Shown here piece after piece: positions 1 to 6,742 of a DNA stretch of 57,824 nt. Within the stretch, counting starts at the first letter, position 1, and every line of letters begins with the position of its first letter. The stretch lies in IMG/VR virus record IMGVR_UViG_3300042868_014220, one strand, 5' to 3'. This stretch comes from a virus. Lineage: Duplodnaviria > Heunggongvirae > Uroviricota > Caudoviricetes. Under the pieces are notes generated by a model. It saw nothing but the letters and a program-made list of their open reading frames with translations, did no database searches and was not told where the DNA came from. The position numbers were made by a program, and so were the translations under genes.

Positions 1-708
1 GCTTCCGCTAGTTCCTGATGAACCTGAGCTTCCGCTAGTTCCTGATGAACCACTTGAACCTGAACCAGATGTTCCTGAAGAACCTGAGCTTCCGCTAGTT
101 CCTGATGAACCACTTGAACCTGAACCAGATGTTCCTGAAGAACCTGAGCTTCCGCTTGAACCTGAACCAGATGTTCCCGAAGAACCGCTTGAACCTGACG
201 TTCCTGATGCACCATTTACTCCTGATGTTCCTGACGAACCTGAAGAACCTGAACTTCCACTTGTTCCCGATGAACCACTTGACCCTGATGTTCCAGAAGA
301 ACCTGAACTTCCATTGGTTCCAGACGAACCTGATGTCCCTGAACTTCCACTTGTTCCTGACGAACCTGATGTCCCTGAACTTCCACTTGTTCCTGACGAA
401 CCTGAACGTCCACTACTTCCTGAAGAACCACTTGAACCTGAAGTTCCATTGGCTCCACTTGTTCCTGAACTACCCGAAGAACCGCTTGTTCCTGATAAAC
501 CAGACGTTCCACTTGAACCCGAACTACCCGAAGAACCTGATGTTCCTGAACTACCTGAAGAACCACTTGTTCCTGATGAACCCGAAGTTCCCGATGAACC
601 TGAACTTCCACTTGAACCAGAACTACCTGAAGAGCCAGATGTTCCTGATGAGCCTGAACTACCACTTGAACCTGAGCTTCCACTTGAACCTGAGCTTCCA
701 CTTGTTCC
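1..708 (-). repeat. Gly-X-Y block C (>=236 aa, truncated by window edge)
   Basis: Same repeat with occasional GS dipeptide breaks (GTSGSGSSG). Confidence 0.9.
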
Positions 709-4063: not shown

Positions 4064-6742
4064 TTAGATTTTAGTATTACCCTTAAAATAAATCGGGCTA
4101 GTTAATGTTGTGCCAACAGGTTGTAATCCGCTAACTGGCATCCAAAGAACTCTGTATGTTCCAGCAGGAATGGCACAACCTGAAGGTATTGTAACGTTTA
4201 TAGTTGATAATGAAGGTACTGGAATTGAACCAACAATTGATGGATTACAAGCACTTCCATAAGAAATGTCAACAGTCATATTATTCATAGAGTTGTTAAC
4301 ACCATTTAATGGAATCCATATTGAATAGAAATAATCTGTATTAACATTTACCGAACTTAACGGTATTTCTATACTACCAAAAGTATATTGAGATTGAGAA
4401 CAACCGAATGAATCCGTACCTGACCCGCTAGTTTGTTTAATTAAACCATTAAAATCTGATACAGGTTCTATGTAGTTTCCAAAACCAGCAGTTGTGAATC
4501 CTGAATACTTCGCATATATTATTAAATCAGCGGCGTAATTATTAATAGGTGGTACACCACTATTTGAGAATCCAAAGAAGTTTGTTGCTCCACTATCGGA
4601 CATATATTGACCAAGATTTAATGCCGAATTAGAATCTTGAGGTTCAGGGAAGATATAAGCGTAATATGAAGGTGGCGTTGGTGTTGGAGTACTTGTCTGT
4701 GTTGGTGTTATTGTTGGAGTAACCGAAGATGTTGGTGTTGGAGATAATCCAGGTGTTGGAGTAGTTGTTGGAGTACTTGTGTTTGTAACCGTTGGAGTAA
4801 CCGTTGGAGTTGTGGTATTTGTCGGAGTAGGTGTTGGAGTTGCATTAGTTGTTGGAGTATTTGTTGGTGTAGGTGTCGGAAGAATTAATCCACAATCAAC
4901 ACAATCAGGATTTAATAAACTATATTTGTCTTTTAATATTCTAAAGTTGTGTTTGATTTGTCCTGCATTTAATGGTTCAGTGTACATCATAAATGTACTG
5001 ATATCACCAATTAAACTACCACCAAAAATTTCTTCTAACTTAATGTTTGTTGTTAAACCAGAATAAATGGTGTTATTTAAATCATTTGTAGTTAAACATT
5101 CAGGGTCTTGTTGATAAGTTAAACCGCTCAACGCATCAGGACATCCGCCTGAGAATGTTAAGTTGTCGTGAAGTCCTTGAGTTCCCCCACCAATTGAGAT
5201 GTTATATGCAACACCAATTTGTTTTTCCTTTTCAACGTTTAATAATCTTGGGATGATTTCCTCAAAGTTTTCTGTAACCAAAAATAATTTTCCGTTAACG
5301 TAGAACTTAAGAGTTCCCAATCTATATTTTTGTTCCTCCGTCCACATATCGTTAAACGTAACGACTTCGGTAGAGGATGGGTCATAAGGTTGTTCGTGGG
5401 TAAGTGGTGGTTCAATTAAACTTACACTTCTTCCTTCAAGAGTTGCAAAGTATACATCTTTTGTAATTAAACCAATTCCACCTTTATCATATAAATCACA
5501 AGTATCTAACCATTCATATCTTTCAAATACTGCATCAATTTGAACCCAATGTTCAACATTAAGATATGTGGTTCCACTGCAATCCTCAAAAATACCTCTT
5601 GTTGAGCACCATTCAGTTATTGAGGTTCCTGTAACATAAGTTATTCCTGTTAAACAGGTTCCAGTACTTTCACATCCTCCAGTAATTCTATAAGTTTTAA
5701 CACATAATCTTGGATTACCACTATCACCGCTTAATCTTAACGATAAAGCGTTTGACACACCATCGTATAAAGGGTCTCTTTCAGGGTATTCTGCCGTTAC
5801 CGTACAATCACATGCACAACCACAAAGACAAGTAGTTATTGTTCCACCTGATTGTTGATATACTTCCATACAATCAGAAGATGTATTTGCACTACTAGCA
5901 CAACCACAAGTGTGCATACAAGTCAAACCTGAAGTAACTCTTGTATAACCCGTATCTTGTTTTGGTGAACCGTCAGCATAATGATAAAATTTATTCTCAG
6001 CTCTGGCACCCATATAAAAGAATGTTCCTTTATTGTTGGGATATCTTTGGTTAAGACCAACGGAAGTATTACCTGTCCATTGATACTTCAACGTAAACTC
6101 TGTTGTCCAACCTAAAGAAACTCTTTGTGGAAATACTTGGTAATCATAACCTGGTATTTTATAAAATCCTTGAAAAAATCCTCCGTCTAAACTTGCAACA
6201 TATCCTATGTCTCCACCTTCATTTTGGTAAGATAAATCGTAGGTATATGAGTTATCATTCCATAATCTATTTTGAGTTGTAGTAAAACCTGTGATAGGAT
6301 GAAGTTTCATTCTTCTATCATATTTGTATCTACTAAACTTATCTGTTGAATTAGTATATAATCCTGTGGTAATCTGTATGGTTTCACCCGACATATTTTG
6401 AACTAAACCATTATCAATTCCTGTTAATCCAACGTCACATAATTCAGTTGTGATAGGACAAAAGTTGGGGTCAACATTGTCGGGATTCCAATAATTCTCT
6501 GATACAATAGTATCGGCACTAAACACACAAGGTGATACTTGACATAAAGTAGTACCACTACTATTAAAATCAAATTTAAAGGGCATTCTATTCCCATCAT
6601 CTTCACCAATTAATAGAGGTGAAAAAATAACTTCTTGGTCATAACTTTTTTCGTCTGACGCAAGACAAATATCAGTTATTTCATTAACAGGTTTTAAACC
6701 AAATCTCCTAAAATTATATTGATTTATATTTTGATATGCCAT
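4064..6742 (-). CDS. Putative virion protein: Cys-rich LamG/ConA-like region, Thr-Pro linker and C-terminal domain
   Basis: 892-aa ORF. WVQIDAVF...LKFYVNGKL...IGDISTFMMYTEPLNAGQIKHNF resembles a LamG-type beta-sandwich. TPTPTP tract at ~4675-4880. Confidence 0.55.
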   Translation of the reverse strand: MAYQNINQYNFRRFGLKPVNEITDICLASDEKSYDQEVIFSPLLIGEDDGNRMPFKFDFNSSGTTLCQVSPCVFSADTIVSENYWNPDNVDPNFCPITTELCDVGLTGIDNGLVQNMSGETIQITTGLYTNSTDKFSRYKYDRRMKLHPITGFTTTQNRLWNDNSYTYDLSYQNEGGDIGYVASLDGGFFQGFYKIPGYDYQVFPQRVSLGWTTEFTLKYQWTGNTSVGLNQRYPNNKGTFFYMGARAENKFYHYADGSPKQDTGYTRVTSGLTCMHTCGCASSANTSSDCMEVYQQSGGTITTCLCGCACDCTVTAEYPERDPLYDGVSNALSLRLSGDSGNPRLCVKTYRITGGCESTGTCLTGITYVTGTSITEWCSTRGIFEDCSGTTYLNVEHWVQIDAVFERYEWLDTCDLYDKGGIGLITKDVYFATLEGRSVSLIEPPLTHEQPYDPSSTEVVTFNDMWTEEQKYRLGTLKFYVNGKLFLVTENFEEIIPRLLNVEKEKQIGVAYNISIGGGTQGLHDNLTFSGGCPDALSGLTYQQDPECLTTNDLNNTIYSGLTTNIKLEEIFGGSLIGDISTFMMYTEPLNAGQIKHNFRILKDKYSLLNPDCVDCGLILPTPTPTNTPTTNATPTPTPTNTTTPTVTPTVTNTSTPTTTPTPGLSPTPTSSVTPTITPTQTSTPTPTPPSYYAYIFPEPQDSNSALNLGQYMSDSGATNFFGFSNSGVPPINNYAADLIIYAKYSGFTTAGFGNYIEPVSDFNGLIKQTSGSGTDSFGCSQSQYTFGSIEIPLSSVNVNTDYFYSIWIPLNGVNNSMNNMTVDISYGSACNPSIVGSIPVPSLSTINVTIPSGCAIPAGTYRVLWMPVSGLQPVGTTLTSPIYFKGNTKI

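Follow-up and report, generated by a model that had tools for sequence, protein, structure and literature searches.

An [S/T]-[G/A]-x-T motif in the fibre-type proteins of a T4-type phage lineage and its possible role as an O-glycosylation sequon

The stretch of DNA analysed here (57,824 nucleotides of IMG/VR virus record IMGVR_UViG_3300042868_014220, hereafter the window) comes from a T4-type phage with a gp23-like capsid protein, a gp20-like portal protein and a large terminase. Several of its putative surface proteins, above all the N-terminal head of a long fibre and two proteins that we call A and B, carry many copies of a tetrapeptide originally written [S/T]-G-x-T. The excess of this motif in fibre-type proteins is real and, as its occurrence in relatives makes clear, the motif is much broader than the window. 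The GC content of the window is about 30%, and by capsid protein its nearest cultured relatives are Flavobacterium phage immuto and Microcystis phage Mel-JY01 (42-45% identity). Since close relatives in IMG/VR reach 321-362 kb, the 74-kb contig that bears the window is taken as a fragment of a jumbo phage genome. Bacteroidota hosts are suggested in PMC12619734, and here the host phylum is only presumed. The proteins that carry the motif and their parts are as follows (aa, amino acids).

1..3228, minus strand: collagen-like Gly-X-Y region of the fibre (G-S-S and G-T-S triplets with globular inserts), matching PF01391 and continuing past the left end of the window
3229..4053, minus strand: N-terminal non-collagen domain of the fibre (aa 1-275 of 1792), 10 copies of [ST]GxT
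3235..3522, minus strand: three tandem modules of ~32 aa in the fibre N-terminus, holding 7 of the 10 fibre motifs, with their register on TGGT
4064..6742, minus strand: protein A, whole (892 aa), 13 motifs
4898..6742, minus strand: conserved N-terminal 615 aa of protein A, a predicted concanavalin-A/LamG-type jelly roll with insertions, 11 motifs
4643..4897, minus strand: Pro/Thr-rich linker of protein A (aa 616-700), a low-complexity match to phrog_15511
4064..4642, minus strand: variable C-terminal domain of protein A (aa 701-892), 2 motifs, with LamG_3 or DUF285 in its place in relatives
27752..29863, plus strand: 703-aa protein with one motif (aa 505), of a family moderately enriched in relatives
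31898..33427, plus strand: protein B (509 aa), unannotated, in the virion block, 8 motifs
37433..37444, minus strand: conserved T-G-S-T in the insertion of the gp23-type major capsid protein, single copy (aa 325)
49997..51157, minus strand: protein C (386 aa) with two long Pro/Thr-rich linkers, 3 motifs, all in the short non-repeat parts; a weak case

The motif and the proteins that carry it

The counts on which the original prediction rested (10 in the 275 N-terminal residues of the fibre, 13 in the 892-aa protein, 8 in the 509-aa protein and 3 in 49997..51157) were all reproduced exactly, and so were the single copies in the major capsid protein, the portal protein (aa 519) and the 703-aa protein, as well as the lack of any copy in the terminase and in the enzymes of the glycosyltransferase (GT) island. 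Its estimate that composition would yield about 2 copies in the 892-aa protein was likewise close to ours, as shuffling of the whole protein gave 2.2 expected copies in A against the 13 observed. By the same procedure 0.94 copies were expected in B (8 observed) and 1.6 in the fibre N-terminus (10 observed, z-score 6.9). When residues were shuffled only within 20-aa windows the z-scores were 8.9 for A, 5.6 for B and 6.4 for the fibre N-terminus (overall range 5.6-9.8), so the excess withstands correction for both global and local composition, and composition or local heterogeneity is ruled out as its cause. Protein C taken whole shows no excess (3 vs 2.6), and its parts outside the Pro/Thr linkers show a weak one (3 vs 0.65, p = 0.025); the rest of the window holds 3 motifs where 6.3 are expected (p = 0.13). 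Over a handful of outward-facing fibre-type proteins of the phage and of thousands of its relatives, the motif is six- to tenfold more frequent than by chance.

Since the motif had first been picked by eye, which could favour an artefact of post hoc pattern choice, we enumerated every gapped pattern of two to three residues in an unbiased scan. SG.T/TG.T ranked first in A and in the fibre N-terminus and second in B, and SG.T in A and B pooled reached p = 8e-10. Given that the pattern comes out on top in three proteins independently, and that it is replicated over thousands of residues in relatives outside the defining set, the chance of an accident of selection is negligible.

The signal has a direction and a narrow definition. 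Neither the reverse pattern T.G[ST], nor shifted variants, nor [ST]G.S, nor [DN]G.T is in excess. In contrast, [ST]A.T is enriched, with 5 copies vs about 1 expected in the window proteins and 625 vs 159 (3.9-fold) in 116 motif-rich proteins of relatives, whose selection made no use of [ST]A.T, whereas [ST]N.T is depleted. The motif is therefore better written [S/T]-[G/A]-x-T, with Thr and not Ser in the last place. A second place that takes Ala but not Asn does not fit a generic beta-turn with a left-handed Gly. Numbering from the first residue as 0, V, I, L, T and Y are favoured at -1 and L, I, S and G at +4, and x can be nearly any residue except Pro. The codons at the motif are diverse and include both Ser codon families, which excludes a cause at the DNA level and places the signal in the protein. 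An analogy with the Ser-Gly attachment dipeptide of animal proteoglycans, drawn in the original prediction, does not hold, as Thr fills the first place as often as Ser does (17 of 33 sites) and hydrophobic, not acidic, residues flank the motif.

Protein A has more than 2000 metagenomic homologues whose first 615 residues are 81-98% identical, and in close relatives (homologues P0008-P0120) LamG_3 (PF13385), DUF285 (PF03382) or other modules take the place of its C-terminus. Such a conserved anchor with a swapped C-terminus appears to be the architecture of a receptor-binding protein, the swapping being as expected of a receptor-binding tip. Searches of Pfam, PHROGs and NCBIfam gave no annotating match for A, B or the fibre head, and tblastn of A and B against cultured phages found no match. 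An AlphaFold model of A(1-615), built from 66 sequences, has a predicted local distance difference test score (pLDDT) of 83.7 and a predicted template modelling score (pTM) of 0.84, and VIA-align relates it to concanavalin-A/LamG lectin-type jelly rolls (Z 14-15), the best match being the tailspike of cyanopodophage Pan3. Matches to clostridial neurotoxin binding domains (Foldseek, VIA) reflect only the common lectin-type jelly roll.

The eleven sites of A(1-615) are at aa 62, 118, 151, 223, 264, 271, 298, 365, 389, 539 and 561. In the model, 37 of the 44 motif residues lie outside strands, which does not differ from the model-wide 63% coil; 6-7 of the 11 sites are at most 3 residues from a strand end, and Thr(+3) is within a strand in 3 cases only. 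Given the coil share, the model suggests no single secondary-structure context common to the sites. The proposal that the motifs be mapped onto predicted structures, with turns of trimeric beta-fibres as the alternative to glycosylation, thus led instead to loops and strand edges of a predicted globular jelly roll; this mapping covered position relative to strands. Two features of A stand somewhat apart. A Cys-rich insertion (5543-5950, minus strand) has 14 Cys in aa 265-400, several of them abutting motifs (S-G-L-T-C, C-S-G-T-T), and could hold disulfides or bind metal. Pro/Thr-rich linkers of the T-P-T-P-T type (phrog_15511) occur in A (4643-4897) and in the 386-aa protein C, of which 29% is Thr. 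In secreted bacterial and fungal enzymes, linkers of this kind are well known as sites of O-glycosylation, and by analogy those of A and C would be a second candidate acceptor.

Protein B has more than 2800 close homologues. Over 80 relatives its family averages 6.9 motifs vs 0.6 expected, and the sites at 67, 115, 228, 245 and 358 are nearly invariant. Homology between A and B was ruled out (hhalign probability 0.2%). The predicted model of B was unusable (pLDDT 37.7), and a look-up in the ESM Atlas gave a weak CBM96 lead only. In the family of the 703-aa protein, 127 motifs were observed vs 25.7 expected over 68 homologues, and in the major capsid protein family 88 vs 33.5 in 74 relatives. 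The gp23-type capsid protein (36596-38416, minus strand) has a Ser/Thr-rich insertion of about 200 aa that holds the conserved T-G-S-T, Pfam and tblastn matches being confined to aa ~14-135 and ~350-599.

The fibre open reading frame (ORF) comprises 1792 aa in the contig. Its repeat matches PF01391 Collagen (E = 6.7e-47) and consists of 190 GSS and 98 GTS triplets (288 G-[ST]-S) with three globular interruptions; the Y place is Ser throughout, never Thr, and Pro is absent. Judged by its sequence, this is a genuine collagen-type Gly-X-Y triple-helix repeat. It had been regarded as the same pattern as the dispersed motif in polymerised form, which is wrong, since the last place of the triplet is Ser and [ST]G.S is without excess elsewhere. 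In the N-terminal head, each module starts with I-T-G-G-T-[YF] and ends with [IV]-x-[IV]-[ST]-G-[VLF]-T, and the I-T-G-G-T module recurs in the fibres of distant relatives, including one of 1933 aa; the motif in these modules is part of a structural repeat. That 1933-aa fibre (L136:13595-19396, plus strand) has 45 motifs, the I-T-G-G-T module, three copies of an S-G-L-T-A-N-T-I-S-A-T-T-Y segment and an extended series of beta-helix repeats of the N-F-I-G type. Just past the fibre gene, the upstream part of the contig (1-2447) encodes a protein with a Gly run (G9-F-Q-G5) as well as two paralogues, 274 and 275 aa long, in tandem. Elsewhere in the window, a 139-aa ORF with 17% Ser (53133-53552, minus strand) lies fully within an opposite-strand gene for a 671-aa protein (53137-55152) and is probably not a gene.

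Distribution, gain and loss among relatives

Among the 847 ORFs of five T4-like phages (T4, immuto, Mel-JY01, RM378 and S-SCSM1) none had a comparable excess, the best p being 3.5e-4 (3 vs 0.13), and gp37 of T4 carries 6 motifs vs 2.1 expected. The motif is thus not a generic property of phage tail fibres, in line with the expectation that it would be uncommon in those of other phages. Complete relatives (321 and 362 kb) have 4 and 3-5 enriched ORFs, respectively, among 300-350 each, and the concentration in putative surface proteins was borne out in that the motif is restricted to a small set of fibre-type proteins in each genome.

Searching 1.8 billion representative proteins with A(1-615) gave 669 relatives, and the excess is 5-10-fold throughout the family. 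The sites at aa 118, 151 and 264 are kept down to 45% identity, with Ser and Thr interchanging, and the others turn over at a kept number, 57 alignment columns bearing a motif among 29 A sequences. The number itself is far from constant in A homologues of similar size and 35-45% identity, whose copy number varies between 0 and 16, with 26 homologues at 8 or more (maximum 16) and 12 at 2 or fewer. The sites, once aligned, show V-[ST]-G-x-T-Y in rich homologues where poor ones show V-[DNE]-G-x-N-Y. Given a Gly, the presence of [ST] just before it and of Thr two places after it are coupled, the odds ratio being 18.8 in rich A homologues (p = 3e-100), 1.7 in poor ones and 1.46 in the 847 control ORFs, and the share of Gly residues that lie inside the motif is 21% in rich A homologues vs 2%. 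No alternative motif was found in the poor homologues beyond family-conserved blocks and mild D-G patterns.

In the A-family tree (maximum likelihood, quick search, SH-aLRT, i.e. Shimodaira-Hasegawa-like approximate likelihood ratio test, support), poor sequences are nested in the rich clade and at least 5 changes are forced by well-supported branches, which points to at least five independent losses of the motif in the family. Within the same proteins, the Ser/Thr of the motif are more conserved than other Ser/Thr; when position 0 changes, the new residue still has a hydroxyl in 50-61% of cases vs 23-34% elsewhere, Thr(+3) is almost never swapped for Ser, and x is less conserved than average. 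These substitution patterns suggest that selection acts on the motif hydroxyls. The A fold does not require the motif, which behaves like an overlay gained and lost independently of the fold, and the rich/poor homologue pairs provide a clean natural experiment.

At 53 distant loci with a rich A-homologue, the neighbouring large fibre ORFs are mostly rich as well (for example 48 vs 10.5 and 22 vs 3.3), although a few of these loci have no neighbour enriched at p < 0.01. Where the A-homologue is poor (5 loci), the neighbours have counts at expectation and none is enriched. In G021 and G022, two phages syntenic with the window, neither the A nor the B homologue has any motif, and in a third (G025) they have 2 and 1, respectively, with 5 in the capsid protein of this motif-poor relative, while the B-homologues of 14 distant rich phages have 34 motifs vs about 7 expected (Mann-Whitney test against the poor ones, p = 0.013). 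Taken over these genomes, the motif is largely a trait of the phage and not of one protein.

Glycosyltransferase genes and possible explanations

The window has two groups of genes for sugar transfer, both identified by Pfam matches.

11946..22707, plus strand: variable glycan island
24760..26620, plus strand: conserved pair of a GT-B-like and a GT2 gene, directly upstream of the virion block that includes B

The island encodes a GT2_5+GT4 fusion, a uridine diphosphate (UDP)-sugar dehydrogenase, two GT2, a GT10, a GT11, an epimerase and a DegT aminotransferase, together with FkbM and rhamnosyl O-methyltransferases. It adjoins the fibre genes; clade-wide, GT2 genes are found in clusters next to the A-homologue, and GTs are present in each of the three complete relatives. 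The GT-B-like gene, the GT2 gene and the 249-aa gene that follows (24760-27369, plus strand; no Pfam match for the last) form a conserved block that heads the virion genes clade-wide, poor phages included. In the motif-free phages G021 and G022, Pfam finds no recognisable sugar gene between the A-homologue and the core pair, where it identifies a DNA methylase and a CARDB-like protein besides unknowns, and the variable island is therefore missing at the syntenic place. This absence, seen in one or two lineages on fragmentary contigs, is suggestive of a link between motif and GTs.

The motif statistics, their directionality, the coupling of positions, the lineage-specific gain and loss, and the sharing of the motif by non-homologous proteins of one phage are all observed, and we consider that [S/T]-[G/A]-x-T may be a tag read in trans, most plausibly an O-glycosylation sequon (a probability of roughly 40%). 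That the reader is an enzyme and that the modification is a sugar are both points that we infer from sequence. The tag would lie on loops and strand edges in a small number of outer virion proteins (the putative lectin-fold receptor-binding protein A, B and the fibre head) and would be recognised by a soluble phage-encoded glycosyltransferase. This enzyme would O-glycosylate one of the two hydroxyl residues of the tag in the cytoplasm, either ahead of assembly or in its course, and the glycan could then be lengthened by the variable GT island. The original prediction of a signal read by a phage GT is thus sustained as to the excess, its directionality and its independence of the fold, but the link to the GTs is circumstantial.

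Several observations weigh against a glycosylation sequon. The core GT-B/GT2 pair is present as a single copy in 23 of 25 related contigs, motif-poor ones included, and the poor lineage G025 retains the GT2_5+GT4 fusion and GT11, so that none of these genes tracks the motif and each was rejected as the discriminating gene. Non-target proteins do not avoid the motif, as ORFs with zero motifs number 259 vs 256 expected in one relative (G016) and 311 vs 304 in another (G005). Two phages (G012 and G013) have 12 motifs in A and 0 in B, and no more than 2-3 independent lineages, represented by fragmentary contigs, are motif-free. The hydrophobic or beta-branched residues at -1 and +4, the demand for Thr at +3 and for a small residue at +1 would also suit a packing motif, and the seven fibre copies mentioned above lie within a tandem structural module.

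The last two points lead to the explanation that competes most closely, namely an intrinsic strand-edge or loop-cap structural motif, left unmodified, that replaces Asp/Asn-Gly turns in one lineage of fibre proteins. The Ser/Thr side chain would cap the backbone, the small residue would pack tightly and the beta-branched Thr would begin the next strand. Besides the flanks, the near-absence of Ser at +3 and the tandem I-T-G-G-T...[ST]-G-x-T repeat of the fibre, it is favoured by the Gly/Ala-only second place, which suggests a steric limit, by the D/N-G, the classic turn dipeptide, that poor homologues carry at fold-conserved sites, by the conservation of aa 118, 151 and 264 of A, and by the closeness of more than half of the A-model sites to a strand end. 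On the other hand, the motif is lost in concert at about 10 sites per protein, and in two unrelated families of the same phage, with the folds persisting. It is also absent from the five other myophages, T4 fibres included; its second place rejects Asn/Asp and accepts Ala, unlike a left-handed turn glycine; and in the A model Thr(+3) is within a strand in only 3 of 11 cases and the sites have no secondary-structure context in common. We regard this explanation as less likely than not, though as a serious rival. A tag read by something other than a GT, such as a fibre-assembly chaperone, a kinase, an acyl- or methyl-transferase or a host factor, would draw on the same overlay-type evidence as the glycosylation sequon and would fit the lack of a GT that tracks the motif, but no candidate gene for such a reader was identified and GT genes are by far the commonest modifying enzymes adjoining these genes, which makes it improbable. 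Finally, the motif could be a by-product of the amino-acid usage of a lineage or habitat, with hydroxyl-rich, low-charge surfaces replacing Asp/Asn/Glu/Lys. Rich homologues do have more Ser, Thr and Gly and fewer Asp, Asn, Glu and Lys than poor ones, and SG/TG rise as NG/DG fall. Yet the reversed pattern, of identical composition, has a z-score of about 0, the coupling remains when conditioned on Gly, NG and DG are barely depleted in rich proteins (0.80 and 0.93 of expectation) and only those few ORFs per genome are affected, so that usage is a very unlikely cause. The same two values leave little to the avoidance of deamidation-prone NG/DG, which was rejected as weak.

Were the sequon confirmed, phage-encoded protein glycosylation would have its first defined acceptor code, glycosylated virion proteins would become predictable from sequence in thousands of uncultured phages, and the soluble GT islands beside fibre genes would be explained. 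Such a sequon would also point to receptor-binding proteins coated with sugar, with possible effects on host range, on stability and on how defences or grazers recognise the phage. Going further, one might picture a very large clade of aquatic jumbo phages with its own O-glycosylation code, in which soluble transferases read [S/T]-[G/A]-x-T in receptor-binding and fibre proteins and G-x-S in collagen-like fibres, glycan coats vary among strains, the sequon decays after loss of the island, and glycofibrils of the TLP-3 type are a possible product; we put this forward tentatively, as a picture that may well prove wrong. If the motif is structural instead, it would be a compact lineage-specific building rule for beta-rich fibres, of use in modelling and design.

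Comparison with known systems

Among structural elements, the nearest are the ST-turn and Asx-turn and the Gly beta-bulge of beta-proteins, in which Ser/Thr or Asp/Asn precedes Gly at strand ends. The D/N-G of poor homologues at the same sites resembles them, but generic turns are not lineage-specific, make no demand for Thr at +3 and follow no rule that admits Ala and refuses Asn. Among glycosylation systems, AIDA-I/Aah and TibA/TibC (autotransporter heptosyltransferases) and GtfA/GtfB (serine-rich repeat adhesins) carry out cytoplasmic Ser/Thr O-glycosylation of surface fibres before export or assembly. The short loop sites between beta-strands of surface fibres are alike, whereas the enzyme families and the acceptor patterns differ.

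The general O-glycosylation of Bacteroidota acts on exported proteins. Its sequon, D-(S/T)-(A/I/L/V/M/T) (PMC8550257), is likewise a short O-glycosylation signal, and of the presumed host phylum, but it shows no excess here, with 1 vs 2.9 in A, 0 vs 2.3 in B and 331 vs 378 in the 116 rich proteins (z-scores of -1.2, -1.7, +1.4 and -2.7 over the sets examined), and was rejected. The N-glycosylation pattern N-x-(S/T) was rejected as well, with z-scores of 0.2 to 1.5 in A, B and the fibre N-terminus and -5.2 in the 116 rich proteins.

A search of the available literature for a TGxT/SGxT motif of this kind found none that was relevant. The closest precedent for the reading of such a tag, by analogy, would be BclA3, a collagen-like spore glycoprotein of C. 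difficile, whose G-P-T repeats read T-G-P-T and are modified at Thr with O-linked N-acetylglucosamine (O-GlcNAc) by the adjacent soluble SgtA (PMC7157674). T-G-P-T fits [ST]-G-x-T literally, and BclA3, like the phage fibre, is a surface fibre with a collagen-like region. The differences are that BclA3 has a polymer with Pro at x, as opposed to isolated copies without Pro at x in the phage, and that its acceptor is the Thr in the Y place, where the G-S-S/G-T-S repeat of the phage has Ser.

In mycobacteriophages, phage-encoded GTs glycosylate the C-terminal parts of capsid and tail-tube subunits (Freeman et al. 2023, as summarised in PMC12619734). There too the GT genes adjoin structural genes; glycans are on the virion proteins there and only predicted here, and our candidate sites, in contrast, are dispersed tetrapeptides in fibre and putative receptor-binding proteins, with one per capsid protein. 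The TLP-3 glycofibril, seen by cryo-EM in water from a freshwater pond, is trimeric. Its chains consist of tripeptide repeats in which two small residues precede an O-glycosylated Ser/Thr, hydrogen bonds of the collagen type link the chains, and its authors did not find where it comes from (bioRxiv 10.1101/2025.09.30.679562). This comparison concerns the fibre repeat and not the dispersed motif. The tripeptide repeat of TLP-3 is as expected of a glycosylated (G-[S/T]-S)n fibre, and phage collagen-like fibres would be a candidate source of the TLP-3 glycofibrils.

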